This document shows, piece after piece, positions 1 to 55,294 of a stretch of DNA of 64,000 nt. The position numbers and the translations under genes are program-made. The first letter of the stretch is position 1; each line of letters starts with the position of its first letter. This stretch comes from Candidatus Magasanikiibacteriota bacterium (lineage in GTDB: Bacteria > Patescibacteriota > Patescibacteriia > Magasanikbacterales > UBA922), in contig WJJZ01000010.1 in the NCBI GenBank assembly GCA_014729395.1, forward strand, positions 156,544 to 220,543, in the 5' to 3' direction. A model generated the notes under the pieces. That model ran no database searches and was not told the DNA's origin. It saw only the letters and a list, made by a program, of their open reading frames with translations.

Positions 1-722
1 TTTGTAAAAGTAATCAAATTTGATTTATAAACTATGTCTTTTAAAATAGGTAATCTTAATAAAAGCCAATGTGTTACCGGCCTGGAAAATTTTTGTCTTA
101 CCAGCCACAGCAAAAAAACAGTTACACCTACAATAGAAATAAATAAAATAAGTCCGTGGTCTTGGACAAAATGAGAGAACCAAATTAAACCTCTTGTGGT
201 GGCAGGTAAATCAACATCTAAACCCTCAAAAAGTGGTGTTATCTTCGGTAAAACAAAAAAAGTAACTCCCATACCCAAAACAAAGCTGGCGATCAACACA
301 ATGATCGGATAAAGCATGGCACCTTTTATTTTTGCTATTAATTCTTTTTGAGCCTCCAAGTGCTCAGCTACACTGTTTAAGTTTTGCTCCAAAGTTCCGG
401 AAGCCTCACCGGCCTTAACAGCATTGATAAAGAGACCGGAAAAAACTTTTGGGTAACGAGCCAATGAGTCGGAAAGGGTTCGACCAGATTTTACAGATTC
501 TTGTATCTGACGAACTATTCTCTTTAGTTTACCTTCAGAGGATTCAAGCGCAATACCCAAAGCTTCGGTAATAGTAATTCCGGATTTAAGCATGACGGCT
601 AAATGTTTGGCAAAAACGGCTTTTTGTACCAAAGTGACACCACCAATTGAAATATCAAGAGCCATCAGACTCTCTTTCTTTTTTTTATCTTCTTTCTTTT
701 GAGAAACTTTTTTGACAGGCAT
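1..722 (-). CDS. pilC: Type IV pilus / type II secretion inner-membrane platform protein (GspF/PilC family), C-terminally truncated by the window edge
   Basis: My own translation of the minus strand from ATG (plus 720-722) runs open to base 1: MPVKKVSQKKEDKKKKESLMALDISIGGVTLVQKAVFAKHLAVMLKSGITITEALGIALESSEGKLKRIVRQIQESVKSGRTLSDSLARYPKVFSGLFINAVKAGEASGTLEQNLNSVAEHLEAQKELIAKIKGAML... This is a typical T2SS_F domain, lies directly downstream of pilB, and is missing from the ORF track only because no stop falls inside the window. Confidence 0.8.
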   Translation of the reverse strand, partial: MPVKKVSQKKEDKKKKESLMALDISIGGVTLVQKAVFAKHLAVMLKSGITITEALGIALESSEGKLKRIVRQIQESVKSGRTLSDSLARYPKVFSGLFINAVKAGEASGTLEQNLNSVAEHLEAQKELIAKIKGAMLYPIIVLIASFVLGMGVTFFVLPKITPLFEGLDVDLPATTRGLIWFSHFVQDHGLILFISIVGVTVFLLWLVRQKFSRPVTHWLLLRLPILKDIVYKSNLITFT

Positions 723-3086: not shown

Positions 3087-3115
3087 TTGACATTTTGTAT
3101 ATTTTGATCTATAAT
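3087..3115 (+). promoter_or_regulatory. Sigma70-type promoter driving the tRNA-Val transcription unit
   Basis: TTGACA (3087-3092), 17-nt spacer, TATAAT (3110-3115). A transcript would start near 3122 and include the partial tRNA repeat plus structured leader. Confidence 0.55.
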
Positions 3116-3203
3116 GTAAGGGATTTTTGTGATAAGCACGCCTAGCTCTCGCCTTCGTCCTCGCTTCGCTCGGACTATGGCGAGGCAGGCAGCTGGTTTT
3201 AAA

Positions 3204-3280
3204 GCACGCCTAGCTCAGCTGGTTAGAGCGCCTCGTTTACACCGAGGAGGTCAGGGGTTCGACTCCCTTGGCGTGCACCA
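3204..3280 (+). tRNA. tRNA-Val (anticodon TAC), CCA encoded
   Basis: Cloverleaf folded by hand: acceptor GCACGCC/GGCGTGC, D arm GCTC-AGCTGGTTA-GAGC, anticodon stem CCTCG/CGAGG with loop TTTACAC, T arm AGGGG-TTCGACT-CCCTT, discriminator A + CCA. Confidence 0.85.
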
Positions 3281-4779: not shown

Positions 4780-5724
4780 CTAATCACCTTGTGTAAAATA
4801 AGCGGTAAAATAACTGGTGGAATTTTTTATATTTTGCTGTAAATATTTACCGGAATTACTATGACGGATAATATTTAAATCACTGGCCCCAAGCATGTCC
4901 ATGGTTTTTAATAAAACAATTAAGGCTGCCGGTGCATCAATATAAGTATTATCAAACATTAAAATTTGGCTGTAAGCGCGATTTTCAATTGCGTCCCAAG
5001 TTATTTTATCCATATCAACTGATTCATCCGGGGTCAAATAATGTGAAAAATCAAAAGATCCAATGACCAAAACTTCATCGTTGCCGGAATATTCAGCCAG
5101 TCTGTCCGCTAATTTCTCCATGTCACTAATTTCTTTATTACTTAATATAACCAACGGAACTATGTCGGCTTTTGGAAAATAATATGAAACGAAAGCCACT
5201 GTGTTTTTAATGGAGTGTTCGGGAATAAAATTTTCATTATCATAAGAAACCAAACCACTAGCGACTAATTCATCGATAATAGTATAATTATTTTCTACCA
5301 CCCCAAACGGAGTCCGCCAATCCACTCGACCGCTAATAACATCATCCACGCCTTGACCGATGTGATTTGGTCCCAAAATAATTATGGTTTTTGGGTTTTC
5401 AGTTTCTTTAAGTCGAGAAAAGAATTCTGCAATATAATCTGAAACCAAATCATGATGAGGAATTATTCCACCATAAACTTTTTTATCTTTTTCTTGATAT
5501 GTTTTTTCACCGTTCTCTATGGCTGAATAAAACAATTCCCAGTTATAATCCAATTCAACTGTCTCCGCATACGGTTCGCTGTTAGAAAACACCGGACTAT
5601 GTTCATCTTTTATCTCAGTCAACATCTGTTGCTTGTAAAATATCAACAAAAAAATCACCACCAGACCGACAAAAGCGATGGCAGTGATTTTTAAGGTTTT
5701 AGATTGTCCGGTCTTATTCAACAT
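4780..5724 (-). CDS. MEMO1-family protein (AmmeMemoRadiSam system protein B-like) with N-terminal membrane anchor
   Basis: Motifs IPHHD, LGPNH, PEHSIKN, SFDFSHY match the MEMO1 family His/Asp metal-site motifs (PHAGY / GPSH / EHS / SDxSH). Confidence 0.55.
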   Translation of the reverse strand: MLNKTGQSKTLKITAIAFVGLVVIFLLIFYKQQMLTEIKDEHSPVFSNSEPYAETVELDYNWELFYSAIENGEKTYQEKDKKVYGGIIPHHDLVSDYIAEFFSRLKETENPKTIIILGPNHIGQGVDDVISGRVDWRTPFGVVENNYTIIDELVASGLVSYDNENFIPEHSIKNTVAFVSYYFPKADIVPLVILSNKEISDMEKLADRLAEYSGNDEVLVIGSFDFSHYLTPDESVDMDKITWDAIENRAYSQILMFDNTYIDAPAALIVLLKTMDMLGASDLNIIRHSNSGKYLQQNIKNSTSYFTAYFTQGD

Positions 5725-8700
5725 TTTCTATAACTATGGTACCCGGCTCGGAATAATTGATAATATCCTCGGTATTAACAGATTGGATTACGGCCGGCTC
5801 AACTGTAAATTCACCAAGCGAATTGACACGGGCATAGTATTTTCTATAACCGCATTTTGATCCCTTATAATAATTCGTTTTAATTATATTGTAACCGCTT
5901 CTATACGGATATATTATACAACTATCATAATCAATATCGCCCCTGGCATACGGTCTTTTGATTATACTTAAGCCGCTTGGTAATATATCGGTTACTGTGT
6001 AGGCGCCGTCAACAGAGTTGGGATTAATAGATGGATAAAGCCTCACCTCAACCACATCATTTTCTTTAAACGTAGTGGTTTCTTGACCATCTACAAAATA
6101 CTTTTTCTCAACTGATACATAAGTGACTCTCCCAGGTTCTTCGGCATACTGATTTGGAGCGGCAAAATATGATACGGTTACACCCACGTCGCCGTCTATC
6201 TCTTCAACTTTGAATGTTTCATATTGCTCCGGAGTAAGAGACAAGGTAAAAGTTCTACCTTTTTCCAATTCTTTTTCAATGCGCTTGCCATCAACGGTCA
6301 CAACAAAACTCACCGGAGTCGGTTTTAGATGTGTTAGCCTTTGCTTGATATACAAGAGCTCTTCCAAATTCACTAAAATTTCTCTAGTGTAATTCTTTTG
6401 AACATAATTCCACAATCTTTCGTGAAAATCATTATCCACACCGGCAGCTAAGTTGGCGGCGAGTGATGTAGCGGCCAAAATTTCGTCCTTATTGTCACTC
6501 GGTTTTATACGAACCATGCTTTCAAACTCTTCACCATAGTCGCTTAAGAGCTGATCTAACATATCGCGAGCTAGTTCGGTATCACCCAATTCTTCAGCCG
6601 CCAAAGCAATATAAAGACGATTTTTCACTGACAAATCCTCTTTTTGGGCCATTTTTTGCACCGGATACAAAACCGGTTCATCCAAAGCGGCCAAACCATA
6701 TAGTGACAGAGCGGCTTCATCTTCAGTCAAACTGGTTTGGTTGTAAAACCCGTAAAAATAATTGGCTAAAGCATTACGATCGAAAAATTGCGGGGCTAAA
6801 GCGGCTATTTTGGCCGACAGTTCAAAATCCGAATCGGCATATGACAACAAAGCAATACCGCCATTAGACATTTGGAATAAATTTTTATCAATTTCTTCAC
6901 CATTTCCTGTCATTTCGTCATCAAAATAAACTTGTTTGAATCTTCCGGCTAAGACGCGAGAAAGTTTTTGATCGATTCTGTCACCCCAAGTCCAAGCCAA
7001 TCTGGTCAAACGGTTGTAGAATTTACCTTGGCTTTCATCAGAAAAAATCATTTTAAATCTATCTTCAGGAATTTGTACCAGTTTTATATCTTGTGTCAGT
7101 TCATAAAAATCAGTAAATTCTTTCTTAAGCCTGGAATCTATAACGGAAATAGGCCTGATAACAGCGTCACTATAGCCGTTTGTCTTTACCGAGTGATATA
7201 GAGGATAAACACCTTTTTTAAGGTTACCCAAATCAAAATATTCCGGAACGAAAGCATACGAGGATCGCTCTTCATCAATACCCAGGTCATCAATTGTCAT
7301 TGAAAAATCAACCTTATCTCCCCGGTTCAATGAACTACCATAGGCTCTCAACTTAACGATAGGTTTATCACTTGCCAAATACTCGTCAGCAAATGTTCCC
7401 AAGACAAAAACCGGTTTACTGACATTTATGTTGCCGGTTGACTGACCGGCCAAAAGTGACTTGGTAACAGCTTTGGCATTAACTCGCCAAGAAGTAATAT
7501 TGTCGGGTAATTTGAAACTTATTTCACCCTTGCCATTACTGGCGGTTTGTCCGGAAAAGAACATAGCAGTATCCTTGAAGTCCACTCGTGCTCCGCCTTT
7601 TTCATTATGTACATAAATGCCATTGGCAATATAAGTATGATAATCAGCCACATGAAAATTAAACACCTCAACTGTCTTTTTCACTTTCTCAATATTTTCA
7701 ATCAAAATATAGTTACCATCCGCGTCCAACATAAAATCACCTACCTTGGCCTCGCCGATCATTTGCCAACCATCGTTGATATAGAATCTATGTTCCGGAG
7801 TTACTTCTATAGAATCATTTATAATAATATAACCCGGAACAACATGTTGAAAGGTTTCCACAACCTTGGCTTTGGTTAATTTTCTTGTTGCCGGTGAATC
7901 ATAAGTCAAAATCTCATCACCCGGGACAATATCCTCAATATTTTTTAAACTACCATCCGCCATAGTAATTTTGGTTCCGGACAAAAAGCAACCGGCCCCA
8001 CCTTCGGCTCCACTTTGATCAAATAAGGGGGTTTCGTGTGAACTATAGCTAAACAATTCACCACTTGGGACACCTGCATACAATTCCGACAATGTATTAC
8101 TGTAATCCTCTCTAATCTTATAAACAGCCTCATCAACCAAATTTATATTAAAACTTGACCTAACTCCACGACCAAATTTATCTTTGACGCTAATATACAA
8201 ATTTACATCTTCTCCGGGCTGATAAGTTTGCTTTTCACTAACCACTTCAATATCCAACTCCCTATCAGACTTGGCGACTCTGATGACAGAACCATTACCT
8301 CCTCCACCAAACCAATAATTGCTATAGGTCTCATGAAAAGTATTCCCATCATACCATACCCCTTTTAAACGTAAATTTGGTATGTCTTCTTCAGTAAATT
8401 TAAATCCGTATTCTGAATTCTGACTGACTTGGTAATCTTGCAAACCGCGCTGCATTTGCAAAAACAGAAAATCATTTTTGTCTGATCCGGACAGTTCTTT
8501 TCCATTATTTTTCATTTCCACTTTAACCGTCTCACCGATCGAGTACTCATTAAGATCCCTGTCTTCTGTCTCCTGTTTATCTTTTATTTCCAATTCATAA
8601 AAATCATAATCATACCTTGATTGAAAATTATAAAAATAAGCGGTTTGATAAAAAGCCCGACCATGATTATCTTTGGCAAAAACTTTAACGCGATAATTTT

Positions 8701-11284
8701 TATCTTTTTCAACATCAAACCGGTATTTATGTTCACCGCTGGCGCCGGTATTACCACTAAACTCGCCTACTTTATTCTCATAATAACTATATGAATATCT
8801 TTTACGTGTCACTTTATTTATAAAATCATAATCAGTACCGATTTCTTGTCTTTTATAACCAACTTCATATATTTCCGCTCTAAAATCAACATTGGCTCTC
8901 ACCGGACCCCGATAATCATAATAAATATTACCATCCCCACTGTTAATCTTATCAAAATCAAAGTAATTAAACTTGGTTGTTACTTCTGCTTTACCATCCT
9001 CCACCTTATTCGCTTTAACACTACCCAAAGTATCAAAATTGGCCACAATCACCATGGTACGACCGCTTATTTCTCCCAGTTCCGAATCTGCAGGATGAGC
9101 TTCTAAAGACTTATAAGACACACTAGCACAAGACCACTTATGTGTGCAGCTATGCTCTGATGTATTTATTACAGTCTTGACCCTGCCTTGAGAATCAGTA
9201 GTAACCTGTTGTCCATCAACCGATAAATCCAAATATGGTACTGGCGTCCCTTCAAAAAAATTAGTCTCAGCATCCAAATTAATATCTTCTCCGGCATAAA
9301 CAGCATACTTTTCCGGTGTAAGCTCTATTTGGTATTCGGGCTTAATATAATCTTGAACATTAATAAAATCCCTGGTCACGAATTCACCATCTACAAATAA
9401 CTCGACATGATAATATCCACTTTTAAGATCTTCCAAATTAAATTCCGCGGAAAAAGCACCGTTTGGATCCAATTCAATACTTACCTCTTCCAAAACAGCT
9501 GTTTCATGGTAATAATTAAAATAATCATTTTTTATAAGCTGAAGTTTTATGTCCTTATTTTTTAAATCATTACCATCACGATCTTGTAAAAACCCCCATA
9601 AATGGACTTTGTCATCCGGTTTGTAAACAGGTCTATCTTTTTCCAAAATTGTCCAATAGTCACCACCAAGGTTTCGATCGTATTTACTCAATTTAAACAA
9701 TGCTTTCTCCGATCCGTCGTCTATTACGATCTCATCGCTATCGGCATTAATCTTTTCAGTATCAAAAACCACCAGGCCATTGCTATTTGATGTGTATTCG
9801 TCTCCACTCCCAACCAGCCTAACTTTGGCAGCATTTATGGATGTATCGCTTTGTGCGTTCTTAAGCCAAACCAAAGACTGGTCTTCCAGTATATTTATAT
9901 AGGCGGCAATATTGGTAACTTGAAAAAAAGTCTGTAAAGTTCTATTGTCCGGTGTTTGCAGTTCCAGAGCATAAAAACCAACATCCAGGCTATCAGGTAA
10001 AACCAGATAATCTCTATTACGTGATTCGGTTGTTTTTAGATCAATATCCATGACTTGAACTGCATTACCAAGGTCAATCTTGGTATATCGATTCTGATAA
10101 CTCGCCCATGAAGGTATGGCACTTTTTTGACTAACCAATCTTTGATAGTTTTCCAAATTACCTAAATTATATACCGATACTTTATACTCAGCTTGGGTAC
10201 CATGCTCATATACCGGGAAAAAAGGAGTTACATCCGGAGAAAACTCACTAAGCTCTTTTCTAAAATAAATTTTTCGATAATTAGAAGCCGAGCCAGCAGC
10301 ATTGGTCTCAAATTGAAATTGAAAATCTTCTTCCAGTGATTCATCGGAATTTTCAAGGGGTAAATTTTTATCTACAGTTATAGTATAAATGGTACCGCTT
10401 TGTAATGTTTCATTTGGTACTAAAACCAAAGTCCGACCATGCTTTTCAAATCTATGGCTGATATTAGGTTCAATTGTGACATATTTATAATAATCATAAT
10501 AATCTTCATGACTAAAATAAATTTCTATACCGGTATTTAGCGGTACTTCGTCAACTTTGTCGCGCGGTAAACTGCCATAAATTTTAAACTGATCTTTGAC
10601 TTGGAAAGCCCAAGAATAGTCGCGCTCAACTGTTAAACCCTCGGAATTAACATATGCTGAATCAATTTTTAAATTATAAACAGTCCTGGTTTGAAGAGGA
10701 CTTTTTGGTGTAACTTTAAATTCTTGATTACTTATTACTTCAAAATTAAAATCAACCTCCGGAGTTAATTTAATATTTTCTTTTAACAAATTACTGTCTT
10801 CTATTTCGTCCTTGCTTTTTATTACAAAAGCGGTGCTGCTATCCACACCCAGACTGTCTGACTCAGTGGCTTCAACCGTAAAATTATCCTGGGCATAGGC
10901 CGGATTTATCAATAATTTTGAAAAGGGATCAAATAAACCGCCCGGCTGGCTTGGTTGCCAAATATAGATACTCGATATTGTGACCAATACCACCAGACCA
11001 ACAATCGCGGCCGGTACCAATCGCTTTGGCCTAAATAGGGTTTTTAGGGAAGCAATATTCAAACTTGGTTTTTTCATAATAATATTTTTTTTGCGCCGTT
11101 TCTCAATGATGTCTCGCTTTAGCGAATTTTTAAACTCTTGAGAAGCAGGCTGTGAATTAAAAATCCCCCGCTTGAGTTTACCCTCTGCTTCCTTTAACGA
11201 CGCAAACTTGGATTCATTACGTTTTTTATTGGATTTTTTATTATCCAAAAAATTCATTTTTTTATTTTTTGCCTTATTTTTCAT
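5714..11284 (-). CDS. Giant (1856 aa) single-pass membrane protein: Lys-rich cytoplasmic N-terminus, TM helix, Ig-like (Big_5/SbsA-type) and macroglobulin-like beta domains, embedded Hint/mini-intein-like domain, alpha-2-macroglobulin (A2M) domain, alpha-helical TED-like region without thioester, C-terminal receptor-binding-like domain
   Basis: A2M hallmark FKLPDNITSWR; TED-like LSLYGLAALDEP region but no CxEQ; C-terminal MG8-like region; start codon overlaps the stop of the upstream ECF sigma gene (ATGAAAAATAA overlap). Confidence 0.8.
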   Translation of the reverse strand: MKNKAKNKKMNFLDNKKSNKKRNESKFASLKEAEGKLKRGIFNSQPASQEFKNSLKRDIIEKRRKKNIIMKKPSLNIASLKTLFRPKRLVPAAIVGLVVLVTISSIYIWQPSQPGGLFDPFSKLLINPAYAQDNFTVEATESDSLGVDSSTAFVIKSKDEIEDSNLLKENIKLTPEVDFNFEVISNQEFKVTPKSPLQTRTVYNLKIDSAYVNSEGLTVERDYSWAFQVKDQFKIYGSLPRDKVDEVPLNTGIEIYFSHEDYYDYYKYVTIEPNISHRFEKHGRTLVLVPNETLQSGTIYTITVDKNLPLENSDESLEEDFQFQFETNAAGSASNYRKIYFRKELSEFSPDVTPFFPVYEHGTQAEYKVSVYNLGNLENYQRLVSQKSAIPSWASYQNRYTKIDLGNAVQVMDIDLKTTESRNRDYLVLPDSLDVGFYALELQTPDNRTLQTFFQVTNIAAYINILEDQSLVWLKNAQSDTSINAAKVRLVGSGDEYTSNSNGLVVFDTEKINADSDEIVIDDGSEKALFKLSKYDRNLGGDYWTILEKDRPVYKPDDKVHLWGFLQDRDGNDLKNKDIKLQLIKNDYFNYYHETAVLEEVSIELDPNGAFSAEFNLEDLKSGYYHVELFVDGEFVTRDFINVQDYIKPEYQIELTPEKYAVYAGEDINLDAETNFFEGTPVPYLDLSVDGQQVTTDSQGRVKTVINTSEHSCTHKWSCASVSYKSLEAHPADSELGEISGRTMVIVANFDTLGSVKANKVEDGKAEVTTKFNYFDFDKINSGDGNIYYDYRGPVRANVDFRAEIYEVGYKRQEIGTDYDFINKVTRKRYSYSYYENKVGEFSGNTGASGEHKYRFDVEKDKNYRVKVFAKDNHGRAFYQTAYFYNFQSRYDYDFYELEIKDKQETEDRDLNEYSIGETVKVEMKNNGKELSGSDKNDFLFLQMQRGLQDYQVSQNSEYGFKFTEEDIPNLRLKGVWYDGNTFHETYSNYWFGGGGNGSVIRVAKSDRELDIEVVSEKQTYQPGEDVNLYISVKDKFGRGVRSSFNINLVDEAVYKIREDYSNTLSELYAGVPSGELFSYSSHETPLFDQSGAEGGAGCFLSGTKITMADGSLKNIEDIVPGDEILTYDSPATRKLTKAKVVETFQHVVPGYIIINDSIEVTPEHRFYINDGWQMIGEAKVGDFMLDADGNYILIENIEKVKKTVEVFNFHVADYHTYIANGIYVHNEKGGARVDFKDTAMFFSGQTASNGKGEISFKLPDNITSWRVNAKAVTKSLLAGQSTGNINVSKPVFVLGTFADEYLASDKPIVKLRAYGSSLNRGDKVDFSMTIDDLGIDEERSSYAFVPEYFDLGNLKKGVYPLYHSVKTNGYSDAVIRPISVIDSRLKKEFTDFYELTQDIKLVQIPEDRFKMIFSDESQGKFYNRLTRLAWTWGDRIDQKLSRVLAGRFKQVYFDDEMTGNGEEIDKNLFQMSNGGIALLSYADSDFELSAKIAALAPQFFDRNALANYFYGFYNQTSLTEDEAALSLYGLAALDEPVLYPVQKMAQKEDLSVKNRLYIALAAEELGDTELARDMLDQLLSDYGEEFESMVRIKPSDNKDEILAATSLAANLAAGVDNDFHERLWNYVQKNYTREILVNLEELLYIKQRLTHLKPTPVSFVVTVDGKRIEKELEKGRTFTLSLTPEQYETFKVEEIDGDVGVTVSYFAAPNQYAEEPGRVTYVSVEKKYFVDGQETTTFKENDVVEVRLYPSINPNSVDGAYTVTDILPSGLSIIKRPYARGDIDYDSCIIYPYRSGYNIIKTNYYKGSKCGYRKYYARVNSLGEFTVEPAVIQSVNTEDIINYSEPGTIVIENVE
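7604..7990 (-). other. Hint / bacterial intein-like (BIL) mini-intein domain embedded in the A2M-like protein (aa 1099-1227)
   Basis: Block A CFLSGTKITMADG, block B TPEHRF (TxxH), block F/G VFNFHVADYHTYIANGIYVHN ending His-Asn; +1 residue is Glu (not Cys/Ser/Thr); no endonuclease domain. Confidence 0.75.
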
Positions 11285-20967: not shown

Positions 20968-21040
20968 TGCAGGCGCGGTAGGAATCGAACCCACGACAAG
21001 AGTTTTGGAGACTCCTGTGATACCACTTCACCACGCGCCC
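20968..21040 (-). tRNA. tRNA-Trp (anticodon CCA), G73 discriminator, CCA not encoded
   Basis: Hand fold: acceptor GGGCGCG/CGCGCCT, D arm GTGA-AGTGGTA-TCAC, anticodon stem GGAGT/ACTCT with loop CTCCAAA, T arm GTGGG-TTCGATT-CCTAC. Confidence 0.8.
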
Positions 21041-21043
21041 ATG

Positions 21044-21292
21044 TTATTTGTATTTTAATCTTTTCATTAAACCTGTGTAAGCCGAGCCATATTGTTTCAA
21101 TTTCTTTTCACGTTCTTTAGCTAATTCTTCAACAATATATGATTCATAATAAATTAATTCCAACGGCCGTCTATATTTGGTTGACTTAACTTTCCCATCT
21201 ATATGATTTTTTAACCTTAATCTCAGATTGGATGTAAAACCTATATAAAACTTACTATCTTTTTTACTTTTTAAAATATATACATAAAACAT
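21044..21292 (-). CDS. GIY-YIG nuclease family protein (small stand-alone GIY-YIG domain)
   Basis: YVYILKSKKDSKFYIGFTSNLRLRLKNH = canonical GIY-x10-YIG with the R and N; 82 aa. Confidence 0.85.
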   Translation of the reverse strand: MFYVYILKSKKDSKFYIGFTSNLRLRLKNHIDGKVKSTKYRRPLELIYYESYIVEELAKEREKKLKQYGSAYTGLMKRLKYK

Positions 21293-21303
21293 AATTATCT
21301 ATT

Positions 21304-21379
21304 GTGGCGGTAGGAATCGCCCCGCCCTTCGCGAAGGGCGGGGTTGGAGACTCCTGTGATACCACTTCACCACGCGCCC
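21304..21379 (-). pseudogene. tRNA-Trp-derived pseudo-tRNA: exact copy of nt 1-37 of tRNA-Trp, a 24-nt perfect GC palindrome, and a copy of the tRNA 3' part (CGATTCCTACCGC)
   Basis: 36-nt identity to tRNA-Trp up to the anticodon loop, then CCCCGCCCTTCGCGAAGGGCGGGG, then the T-loop/acceptor 3' fragment; the acceptor stem can no longer pair. Confidence 0.7.
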
Positions 21380-21491
21380 ATATAGCTATCAGTTGACAGA
21401 CTTCAGCTAATACTACCAAAATAAAAGCTGAAGTCCGAAGTCTAATAACTGATTGCTAATTTTACACCATTTCTCCCAAAAAATCAACCCA

Positions 21492-30032: not shown

Positions 30033-30060
30033 TAAAAAAAAGCCCGGGTCAAACCGGGTA
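30033..30060 (-). terminator. Rho-independent terminator after tRNA-Thr(GGT)
   Basis: Minus strand CCCGGTTTGACCCGGG hairpin followed by T8. Confidence 0.6.
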
Positions 30061-30069
30061 ATATTTAAT

Positions 30070-30145
30070 TGGAGCCGACATGCGGGATTGAACCGCAGAC
30101 CTCATCCTTACCATGGATGCGCTCTACCAACTGAGCTATGTCGGC
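30070..30145 (-). tRNA. tRNA-Thr (anticodon GGT), CCA encoded
   Basis: Acceptor GCCGACA/TGTCGGC, D arm GCTC-AGTTGGTA-GAGC, anticodon stem CATCC/GGATG with loop ATGGTAA, T arm TGCGG-TTCAATC-CCGCA, discriminator T + CCA. Confidence 0.85.
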
Positions 30146-30283
30146 ATGACTTCGTTAAAACTACGTCATACGCAGCACGACTTCGTTAAAACTACGTCAC
30201 CACTCGTAATTTTCGTCATGCAACTGCTTGCCCGCCGAAGTCCGGAGCTTGTCGAGGAACGAAGGCGGGAGCTATGTCGGCAT
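30146..30283 (-). repeat. Structured tRNA-Thr leader: two tandem copies of a 22-nt upstream motif (GTAGTTTTAACGAAGTC core), a conserved about 48-nt CGCC...GGCG stem element, and a 15-nt repeat of the tRNA 5' end (ATGCCGACATAGCTC)
   Basis: Direct sequence comparison with the tRNA-Val leader (3135-3203) and the tRNA-Thr(TGT) upstream region. Confidence 0.6.
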
Positions 30284-30399
30284 ATAAAAATAATAACTAA
30301 ACTATAATTATACAAATATTTTACAATAATTATTGTTTAATTATGGTCAAATTATGGTCAAATTATAGTACAATTATTATACCTTTCTGTCAATTGAAA

Positions 30400-32714: not shown

Positions 32715-32795
32715 TTATAACAACAATTAACAATTAACTTTTTGAATATAATTTTTTAAAGTCTCTATAATGTTAATTGTTAAAGGTTGACCTAG

Positions 32796-32868: not shown

Positions 32869-32920
32869 ACGACTTCGTTAAAACTACCTAGTACAAAGCA
32901 TGACTTCAGCAAAACTATTC
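32869..32920 (-). promoter_or_regulatory. Tandem 22-nt upstream motif (two copies about 30 nt apart) abutting tRNA-Thr(TGT), shared with tRNA-Thr(GGT)
   Basis: Plus strand ggcACGACTTCGTTAAAACTAC...GCATGACTTCAGCAAAACTAT versus 30145-30199 ggcATGACTTCGTTAAAACTAC...GCACGACTTCGTTAAAACTAC; the minus-strand core GTAGTTTTAACGAAGTC ends exactly 2 nt before tRNA +1 in both loci. Confidence 0.5.
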
Positions 32921-44507: not shown

Positions 44508-44705
44508 CGAATATACGCCTGCCTGCCGGCAGGCAGGGATAATTCAGATTTACGGATCGTTTAGTCTATAAACCAATAAAATATTTACTATCAACTGTCT
44601 GTATTAATAGAAGTCCTTTATTTGTTAATGATACACTGGACTAACACCAATCTATCCTAAAATCCGCACCTGCCTGCCGGCAGGCAGGTTATCCGTATAT
44701 CCGTA
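44508..44705. repeat. MITE-like element bounded by two identical 20-nt perfect palindromes CCTGCCTGCCGGCAGGCAGG (44518-44537, 44669-44688) with about 10-nt inverted flanks (CGAATATACG / CGTATATCCG)
   Basis: Direct reading; GC-rich palindromes in an AT-rich intergenic region between mreB and the GT4 gene. Confidence 0.6.
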
Positions 44706-54880: not shown

Positions 54881-55042
54881 TTTATAATTTTAAAATCTGT
54901 AAATTTCTTAAATCAAGCATCAACTTGATTTTTTGAATTAATAAACAAAAGTTCTTGACTAAACAGACATAAATGTGTATAATTTTGAAAGTTCAAAGTC
55001 GTTTGTTAATTGTTAATTGTCAAGTTGTTAATTGTTGTAAAT

Positions 55043-55114
55043 GGCCCGTTCGTCTAGTGGTTAGGACTCCAGGTTTTCATCCTGGCAACAGGGGTTCGAT
55101 TCCCCTACGGGCTG
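55043..55114 (+). tRNA. tRNA-Glu (anticodon TTC)
   Basis: Acceptor GGCCCGT/ACGGGCT, D arm GTCT-AGTGGTTAGGAC, anticodon stem CCAGG/CCTGG with loop TTTTCAT, T arm AGGGG-TTCGATT-CCCCT, discriminator G. Confidence 0.8.
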
Positions 55115-55293
55115 CAAACGCAAAAGTGTCAACTACAGTTGGTACTTTTGTATTTGTGAATACCCTTGAGGGAATCGAACTGGGGATGGTAAGGGGCGTA
55201 GCCCCTTACTTGTGGAGGAAAGCCTACGAAAACCCGAAGGTTTTCGTGGGAGCGACTGAAAGGAGCGAGTGAGATTTCCCCTACGGGCTGCAA
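55115..55293 (+). other. Highly structured about 160-nt insert followed by a 19-nt repeat of the tRNA-Glu 3' end (GATTTCCCCTACGGGCTGCA)
   Basis: Three clean hairpins (CAAAAGT...ACTTTTG; GGGGCGTAGCCCC; CGAAAACCCGAAGGTTTTCG) and a duplicated tRNA 3' terminus. Confidence 0.55.
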
Positions 55294-55294
55294 A

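Follow-up and report, generated by a model that had tools for sequence, protein, structure and literature searches.

The subject of this study is the DNA in front of two tRNA genes, tRNA-Thr(GGT) and tRNA-Val(TAC), in a 64-kb stretch of a Candidatus Magasanikiibacteriota genome (assembly GCA_014729395.1, contig WJJZ01000010.1, 64,000 nucleotides, hereafter the window). In each case the leader holds a partial copy of the tRNA that follows it and a GC-rich hairpin, termed element E. The tRNA-Thr(GGT) gene is located at 30145..30070 on the minus strand, where ARAGORN and Rfam concur (65.8 bits). Upstream of the whole leader is a promoter-like site, TTGACA-17-TACTAT (30365..30393, minus), after which the leader is AT-rich; an 11-nt tandem repeat, AATTATGGTCA, present in 4.5 copies (window 30328-30377), overlaps this promoter-like region. 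The upstream 15-nt copy ATGCCGACATAGCTC (30269..30283, minus), composed of two leader nucleotides and tRNA-Thr nt 1-13, is followed by element E, which reads CCGCCTTCGTTCCTCGACAAGCTCCGGACTTCGGCGGGCAAG and then CAGTTG, the latter identical to tRNA-Thr nt 13-18 (30221..30268, minus). A spacer of 21 nt, read directly as CATGACGAAAATTACGAGTGG (30200..30220, minus), separates E from two leader boxes TGACGTAGTTTTAACGAAGTC (30199..30179 and 30168..30148, minus). After an AT dinucleotide, the second box gives way to the intact tRNA-Thr(GGT) with encoded CCA (30070..30147, minus, the second 15-nt copy occupying 30147..30133), and an intrinsic-terminator-like hairpin with a T run lies 3' of the gene (30043..30058, minus).

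The 15-nt repeat of the tRNA-Thr 5' end that had been pointed out in a sequence-only reading of this DNA is real: ATGCCGACATAGCTC occurs exactly twice, at 30283..30269 and 30147..30133 on the minus strand, against a chance expectation of 0.06 for the whole window with up to two mismatches allowed. The downstream copy likewise consists of two leader nucleotides and tRNA-Thr nt 1-13. The two tandem motifs of 22 nt described in the same reading do exist as a tandem pair, but the exact repeat is 21 nt long and recurs with a 31-nt period. The 21-mer TGACGTAGTTTTAACGAAGTC is found exactly twice, and the repeat stretches to 25 nt at 96% identity. A TGACGTAGTTTTAACGAAGTC-like copy with 3 mismatches is situated immediately 5' of tRNA-Thr(TGT) (32891..32871), and the leader box, including the GAAGTCGTGC junction, is common to the leaders of tRNA-Thr(GGT) and tRNA-Thr(TGT). 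Judging from its bases, the spacer CATGACGAAAATTACGAGTGG is possibly a degenerate third copy of the box. The box GTAGTTTTAACGAAGTC, with variants such as GGTAGTATTAGCTGAAGTC, is also noted in the leaders of both tRNA-Thr genes (TGT, 32871-32918; GGT, 30148-30199) and in that of the disrupted tRNA-Trp described below (21400-21417; all minus); taken singly, the weaker copies lack significance, as about 24 matches per shuffle arise at 4 errors.

The tRNA-Val(TAC) locus, on the plus strand, has the same build. A perfect promoter-like site, TTGACA-17-TATAAT (3087..3115), precedes the upstream 15-nt copy AAGCACGCCTAGCTC (-2..13; 3134..3148). Next come element E (TCGCC...GGCGAGGCAGG), the bases CAGCTGGTT, which equal tRNA-Val nt 13-21, and TTA (together 3149..3201), and a second copy of AAGCACGCCTAGCTC leads into the intact tRNA-Val(TAC) (3202..3280, tRNA 3204-3280). 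The parallel between the two loci drawn in the sequence-only reading extends to the boundaries of the 15-nt repeat, which run from -2 to 13 in both, each repeat matching its own tRNA. Its claim of a CGCC...GGCG element common to both leaders also stands, as the Thr element (30268..30221) and the Val element (3149-3196) are identical at 38 of 48 positions, a score reached by none of 300 shuffles. The 6-bp stem of the hairpin is CCCGCC/GGCGGG in Thr and CUCGCC/GGCGAG in Val, with one compensatory change from C-G to U-A.

On the 3' side of the hairpin the cognate D loop resumes, with CAGTTG in Thr and CAGCTGGTT in Val. Because of these resumed bases, the upstream copy consists of tRNA (-2..13), hairpin and tRNA (13..18 or 13..21), and the upstream tRNA fragment that had been taken to be 15 nt long is present as such but is not limited to 15 nt. 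It is best to regard the upstream piece as a tRNA copy cut short (-2..18 or -2..21), into which a hairpin of about 42 nt was inserted after nt 13. The distance from this piece to the intact gene is wholly different at the two loci, the spacer being 2-5 nt long in Val and 75 nt in Thr. Promoter-like sites are found only upstream of the fragments at both loci, none being detected between element E and the tRNA in the tRNA-Thr(GGT) leader, and both tRNAs score as normal tRNAs.

Comparison with a syntenic relative

Presence and absence of the inserts were compared with one relative, GCA_964433095.1, which is the closest other genome in the collections and is syntenic with the window around both tRNAs. 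In this genome tRNA-Thr(GGT) has a plain leader, ...TTTAGTTATTggatttagtaattattac/GCCGAC, that carries neither fragment nor hairpin, and over the stretch of the tRNA read (through GGCTC) its sequence equals that of the window. The leader of its tRNA-Val(TAC), a tRNA that differs from its counterpart by a few bases, is likewise plain, with neither fragment nor hairpin. Partial self-copies were not found near any of the 5 tRNA genes of the relative.

In the window, the ancestral leader motif TTTAGTTATT immediately precedes the 15-nt fragment, which therefore represents the ancestral 5' end of the gene, and the DNA up to the second 15-mer (138 bp in Thr, 68 bp in Val) was inserted. Since the Thr and Val leaders of the syntenic relative are plain, the insertion is placed in a Candidatus Magasanikbacteria lineage. 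The comparison shows both leaders to be lineage-specific insertions in the D-loop-coding part of the two tRNA genes, with an intact gene regenerated. Presence and absence of an insert at conserved tRNA targets in related genomes is as would be looked for in a homing cassette. The Thr and Val leaders lack the open reading frame (ORF) of such a cassette, which is found in the analogous module at tRNA-Trp.

Other interrupted tRNA genes and the dispersal of element E

A repeat scan and a tRNA-by-tRNA search of the window brought the number of tRNA loci with partial self-duplications and GC hairpins to four out of six. The module at tRNA-Trp (20969-21381, minus) starts with an exact 38-nt copy of AT plus tRNA-Trp nt 1-36 (21344..21381), which is in the ancestral position, downstream of a DUF1189 gene and its TTGATT promoter box. 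In place of tRNA-Trp nt 37-53 there is a perfect GC palindrome, CCCCGCCCTTCG/CGAAGGGCGGGG (21320..21343), the same or compensated variants of which occur in four other CPR (candidate phyla radiation) lineages. The disrupted upstream copy ends with the 13-nt remnant CGATTCCTACCGC, equal to tRNA-Trp nt 54-66 (21307..21319). A GIY-YIG nuclease gene (21044..21292; PF01541, E = 8.8e-16) lies between this copy and AT plus the intact tRNA-Trp(CCA) (20969..21042), with C preceding the AT. The encoded protein of 82 aa is essentially the catalytic domain alone; its gene is the only GIY-YIG gene in the window, and no GIY-YIG remnants were found elsewhere in the window. GCA_964433095.1 has a single tRNA-Trp at the equivalent site, followed by HNH genes.

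Two side observations concern the same tRNA. In the relative, two HNH endonuclease genes (L243 1266-2394) follow tRNA-Trp where the window has the GIY-YIG module, so the same tRNA has different neighbouring nuclease genes in the two genomes. Compared with the related genome, the tRNA-Trp leader of the window has an inserted inverted repeat of about 75 nt, CAGTTATTAGACTTCGGACTTCAGC ... GCTGAAGTCTGTCAACTG (window 21383-21458).

At tRNA-Glu (55043..55294, plus) it is the 3' end that is duplicated: the last 19 nt, TTCCCCTACGGGCTGCAAA, are located at 55100-55118 and again at 55276-55294. A structured insert of 157 nt with three GC hairpins and an inverted T-arm copy separates the two, and the terminator is positioned after the second 19-nt copy. 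This scar is the mirror image, at the 3' end, of the tRNA-Trp type. Homology of E with the tRNA-Glu insert was considered and set aside as not significant. Apart from this, a TTAATTGTTAATTG-type motif is seen directly 5' of tRNA-Tyr and tRNA-Glu (window 32730-32750 and 55005-55040), as well as 5' of the tRNA-Tyr of an unrelated CPR contig (L260 50-85).

Direct tRNA repeats around foreign DNA are the classic signature of integration, and tRNA-Glu displays the typical 3'-end version with its 19-nt repeat. One could thus regard the Thr and Val loci as decayed integrase islands, in which the 15-nt repeats would be the cores of the left and right attachment sites (attL/attR) and most of the element would have been deleted. 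The duplicated end there is the 5' one, the insert measures only 53-123 bp, and two independent deletions would be needed to leave an identical left end of 48 nt. The repeats also include two leader bases outside the tRNA, and at each of the three 5' loci these agree with the local sequence, which points to copying from the target. With no integrase gene in the window either, we hold this account to be highly improbable. The rest of the window consists of housekeeping genes. As a separate observation, a protein of 1856 aa (5714-11284, minus) has a stretch, CFLSGTKITMADGS ... VHN, that on reading resembles an intein/Hint domain and is a candidate for one.

Homologues of the GIY-YIG protein are widespread in CPR, and the Trp-type module was identified in three other CPR contigs, twice at tRNA-Trp and once at tRNA-Cys. 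In every genome with the module, the duplicated 5' portion of the tRNA equals the local tRNA exactly or almost so. The other parts are a GC palindrome of 24 nt (CCCCGCCCTTCGCGAAGGGCGGGG or a variant with compensatory changes), what is left of a T loop, the GIY-YIG gene encoding 82 aa and an intact copy of the tRNA. In L259/L260 (8594-9000), where the GIY-YIG protein is 72% identical, the palindrome is the same as in the window and the remnant is CGATTCC; its copy of tRNA-Trp nt 1-36 agrees with the local tRNA at 36 of 36 positions, and that tRNA is itself different from the tRNA-Trp of the window. The Trp module of L268 (4916-5339), from a Doudnabacteria metagenome-assembled genome (MAG), has a 48-nt duplicate that includes leader sequence, and the palindrome variant CCCCGCCTCTCG/CGAGAGGCGGGG. 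In L267 (1660-2165), from another Magasanikbacteria MAG, two disrupted tRNA-Cys copies (nt 1-26, palindrome and nt 55 onward) are arranged around the GIY-YIG gene and an intact tRNA. In the Falkowbacteria-type contigs L254-L257 (L254 2501-2928), the palindrome is located downstream of the GIY-YIG gene and directly adjoins tRNA-Trp at its 5' end.

Across six palindrome copies 97% of the cells pair, and 2 of the 12 pairs are changed on both sides. The 5' duplication starts at -2 at all three 5' loci of the window genome, and at +1, -5 or -12/-16 in the other genomes. The proposal of the sequence-only reading, that a common mechanism of insertion or duplication affects different tRNA genes, gains support from the plain leaders of the relative, the position of TTTAGTTATT, the Trp and Glu loci and the loci in other CPR genomes. 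A second GIY-YIG subfamily (P0247, in dozens of short contigs; L244-L253, e.g., L251 2455-2760) has no adjacent tRNA. Its genes are flanked by the inverted repeat CCCCGCACCTTTT / AAAAGGTGCGGGG, and a second GIY-YIG gene stands alongside in most of the loci shown.

Element E has matches at three sites of the CPR contig L260, the GC content of which is 33%; for several pairs none of 500 shuffles scores as high. The first site (7339-7478) is an arm of a long hairpin of about 140 nt with terminal inverted repeats GTCATTCCC/GGGAATGAC (fold z = -7.5). Seen by itself, this hairpin has the look of a miniature inverted-repeat transposable element (MITE), and its arms carry the E-family motif TTCGGCGGGCAAG. 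The second site abuts the disrupted tRNA-Trp. The third lies at the start of the contig, about 60 nt upstream of tRNA-Tyr, and the bases that follow its hairpin, CAAGCGGT, are those of the D loop of that tRNA; by this resemblance it is probably a third E-type module, at a third tRNA identity. The notion that GGTTTT is part of E and its match to the Val D loop coincidental, which the L260 match had raised, was dropped, since the post-hairpin bases in L260 belong to the D loop of its own tRNA-Tyr. These significant matches indicate that E is a member of a dispersed repeat family. As a separate observation, the gap between the mreB and glycosyltransferase genes of the window contains a perfect palindrome, CCTGCCTGCC/GGCAGGCAGG, twice (44515-44539 and 44663-44688), around about 125 nt of AT-rich DNA, and its GGCAGGCAG motif is also present within the Val element.

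Larger collections were scanned with patterns derived from E. In the genome collection the pattern CGCCTTCGTN{0,1}CCTCGN{6,9}CGGACT gave at least 120 matches, and among those listed there is no link to a tRNA or to CPR. The contigs of the listed matches have 43-78% GC, all but four of them above 55%, and many of the matches represent one protein-coding motif of Streptomyces and relatives. The metagenome scan with GCTCNCGCCTTCGTN{0,1}CCTCG yielded, among the matches listed, only high-GC chance matches. In viral contigs the junction pattern and the palindrome had 0 matches each, and the E pattern had 6, in contigs of 50-68% GC with similar CCGCCTTCG...CTTCGGCGGGCAAG hairpins that are probably convergent. 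One of them, CCGCCTTCGCCGAAGGCTTCGGCGGGCAAG (L264 2207-2312, a high-GC phage contig), is situated 2 nt upstream of a phage tRNA-Met and may be convergent with E or related to it.

That GC-rich hairpins with UUCG-type loops arise convergently, as these six matches in high-GC phage contigs illustrate, and that the genome is a MAG, are grounds for suspecting a chance similarity or an assembly artefact. The shuffle statistics oppose chance, and the same architecture is met at several loci of the contig and in independent assemblies from other samples, so that we give this explanation almost no weight.

The E-like arm in the long L260 hairpin bears on a further possibility, namely that E is a MITE- or casposon-like miniature transposon that enters the D-arm motif TAGCTC/AG with a fixed 15-bp target-site duplication and depends on a transposase in trans. 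The exact, fixed-length 15-bp repeats (-2..13) with identical boundaries at Thr and Val have the form of target-site duplications. Casposons make duplications of 14-15 bp and prefer tRNA genes, and a contig that begins inside an E copy is consistent with a repeat-induced assembly break. Against this, neither the Val nor the Thr insert ends in inverted repeats, and the two have unrelated right ends, unlike the termini of a transposon or MITE; the resumed D-loop bases fit an insertion inside a longer duplicated piece (-2..21) better; and the Trp and Cys modules duplicate 36-48 nt from variable starts. The 15-bp duplication is the sole point of agreement with casposons, given an insertion in the 5' part of the gene instead of at a tRNA 3' end, no inverted termini and no Cas1 in the window. 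The 64-kb window has no transposase gene either. A miniature transposon of this kind is accordingly judged unlikely.

Tests at the RNA level

Element E is within the predicted transcribed leader, and it may be asked whether it works there as RNA. Under such a reading the hairpin and the acceptor/D-arm mimic would form a cis-acting element of the pre-tRNA, with a part in folding, RNase P processing or stability, or in competition for the 3' acceptor strand. The compensatory stem change between Thr and Val would agree with this, as would the fold of the 70-nt Val leader, which is better than that of shuffled sequences (z = -3.2). It is the only one to stand out: the 138-nt Thr leader gives z = -0.74, and neither hairpin taken by itself surpasses its shuffled versions (Val z = -1.29, Thr z = +0.25). 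An extended stem formed by the 15-nt fragment with the 3' flank of the hairpin was rejected, shuffled flanks being as good in 243 of 2000 and 430 of 2000 trials. In nearest-neighbour models, the fragment pairs with the acceptor strand of the 3' end at an energy no more than about 2-3 kcal/mol from that of the native tRNA fold. This competition exists because the acceptor strand is duplicated and hence is not evidence of function. The alternative structure of fragment, element and tRNA 3' end that the sequence-only reading had envisaged thus came down to a trivial competition between two acceptor strands.

Searches of both leaders against Rfam, down to E <= 10, returned only tRNA matches, and other weak matches mostly overlap the tRNA or AT-rich flanks. 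The sole weak match over the element is to ceN105, a nematode snoRNA model, at 16.2 bits versus a threshold of 55 bits and on the opposite strand. A tRNA intron of the group I or bulge-helix-bulge class does not fit either, as a complete, uninterrupted tRNA follows and no group I match was obtained. E is not called as a terminator, and the only site of the intrinsic terminator or attenuator kind is a weak one with 3 GC pairs in the 31-nt repeats. The element moreover is found at only two of the six window tRNAs and is missing from the relative, although tRNA-Thr there matches over the stretch read, and the spacer between it and the tRNA differs greatly between Val and Thr. Taken with the Thr folds, these results make a functional leader RNA quite an unlikely explanation.

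Origin of the inserts and comparison with known systems

We lean toward reading the Thr and Val leaders and their kin as scars left by break-and-repair events or by a mobile element invading tRNA genes, with the intact gene regenerated. Laid side by side, the loci form a series of disrupted tRNA copy, GC hairpin and intact tRNA, the full form of which includes the GIY-YIG gene; the Thr and Val inserts would be its ORF-less end. As to what the nuclease does, in which order things happened and how the leader is processed, we infer the following scheme. A break would occur in the loop-coding part of a tRNA gene, a homing-type GIY-YIG nuclease being its probable maker. Repair would proceed by patchwork copying, in which a hairpin repeat is taken from elsewhere and the tRNA is re-synthesised or duplicated. 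Besides the hairpin repeat, the patches would comprise stretches from the leaders of other tRNAs (the Thr(TGT) box with its GAAGTCGTGC junction) and the tRNA 5' end, newly copied from -2. If the tRNA is single-copy, as genome size leads one to expect, the survivors would be those products that keep one intact tRNA, and the direct repeats would make precise loss of the insertion possible. At the present day, transcription from the promoter upstream would include the whole insertion in the 5' leader, which RNase P would take off by its cut at +1. It would then be a tolerated scar or a selfish passenger rather than a regulator, with the hairpin passive in the leader.

Several observations count against scars of this origin. 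The presence/absence comparison has only one relative, and a fairly distant one (PilB 70% identical). The Thr and Val leaders contain no nuclease gene, nor a recognisable remnant of one, and the 64-kb window lacks genes for a transposase, integrase, reverse transcriptase or Cas1. The homology of E with the Trp/Cys palindrome is not significant, the two having only the start CCCGCC(C)TTCG in common, and E is without terminal inverted repeats. Both large scans employed GC-rich patterns and are silent on the actual distribution of E. The cleavage of tRNA genes by the GIY-YIG protein is putative. The start of all three 5' duplications at -2 is not accounted for by any of the mechanisms proposed.

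A more specific version, which we put forward tentatively and regard as possible but doubtful, is that the loci belong to an undescribed selfish family of CPR. An 82-aa GIY-YIG nuclease with a conserved GC palindrome would invade tRNA genes where they encode loops (after nt 13, 26 or 36 and before nt 54-56), and repair would duplicate the tRNA, leaving a hairpin-interrupted pseudo-tRNA beside the intact gene. The Thr and Val inserts would then be ORF-less miniatures mobilised in trans.

Several known systems share features with these loci. Free-standing homing endonucleases of fungal mitochondria (GIY-YIG/LAGLIDADG) also combine a small ORF in or near a conserved gene with a partial duplicate and an intact copy, and homing-endonuclease genes show presence/absence polymorphism among relatives, as seen here. 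Allomyces atp6 is the classic case of a host-gene duplication linked to a homing endonuclease. Duplication of host-gene fragments tied to such elements is reported for fungal mitogenomes, for example, in PMC7315562. The present loci differ from the fungal genes in having bacterial tRNA hosts, a duplicated 5' part, a GC palindrome in the disrupted copy, ORF-less versions at Thr and Val, and an endonuclease that is putative.

Phage T4 SegB is a GIY-YIG homing endonuclease that acts in a tRNA gene cluster (PMC13096335). It likewise associates a GIY-YIG enzyme with tRNA genes, and what is reported of it can be likened to the tandem tRNA copies at L267 and at tRNA-Trp of the window. SegB, in contrast, comes from a phage, is larger and has a DNA-binding domain, compared with 82 aa encoded in CPR chromosomes here. 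To our knowledge, no hairpin-disrupted tRNA copies accompany SegB. Integrative elements that target tRNA genes also leave direct tRNA repeats around foreign DNA and keep the tRNA intact. They usually involve the 3' end, kilobases of DNA and an integrase, whereas the 5' end and 53-300 bp are involved here, with no integrase in the window.

REP/BIME (repetitive extragenic palindromic sequences/bacterial interspersed mosaic elements), Rickettsia palindromic elements, GC clusters of yeast mitochondria and MITEs likewise are GC hairpins dispersed in an AT-rich genome. Such short palindromic families also have members in more than one genome and are tolerated in transcribed regions of RNA genes. We know of none in which a piece of a duplicated tRNA gene is found on both sides of the hairpin. 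In the same clade, the rRNA genes of CPR carry non-intron insertions that are uncharacterised, many of them short (<200 bp) and some encoding GIY-YIG proteins (PMC11270868, the text of which nowhere mentions tRNA). Those inserts lie inside the rRNA genes, whereas here the tRNA is kept intact via partial duplication. In the literature, no description was found of small GIY-YIG genes or hairpin-disrupted tRNA copies beside bacterial tRNA genes. The tRNA arrangement differs from the known cases in its chromosomal tRNA host in CPR, the 5' part duplicated, the GC hairpin in the disrupted copy, the 82-aa nuclease and the ORF-less versions.

For annotation, leaders that consist of a tRNA fragment and a hairpin call for caution, as they would be scars rather than regulatory RNAs. 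CPR genomes are tiny, and most of their tRNA genes are expected from genome size to be probably single-copy. An insertion in a single-copy tRNA gene should be lethal; these loci show recurrent survival, with the gene rebuilt beside the damaged copy. If the link to the nuclease holds, it would also account for breaks in assemblies and for peculiar "leaders" of tRNA genes in CPR MAGs, and the GIY-YIG protein would form a nuclease/target pair with the tRNA-Trp gene and the palindrome. The finding suggests a concrete role for the small GIY-YIG genes that are very abundant, and unexplained, in CPR.

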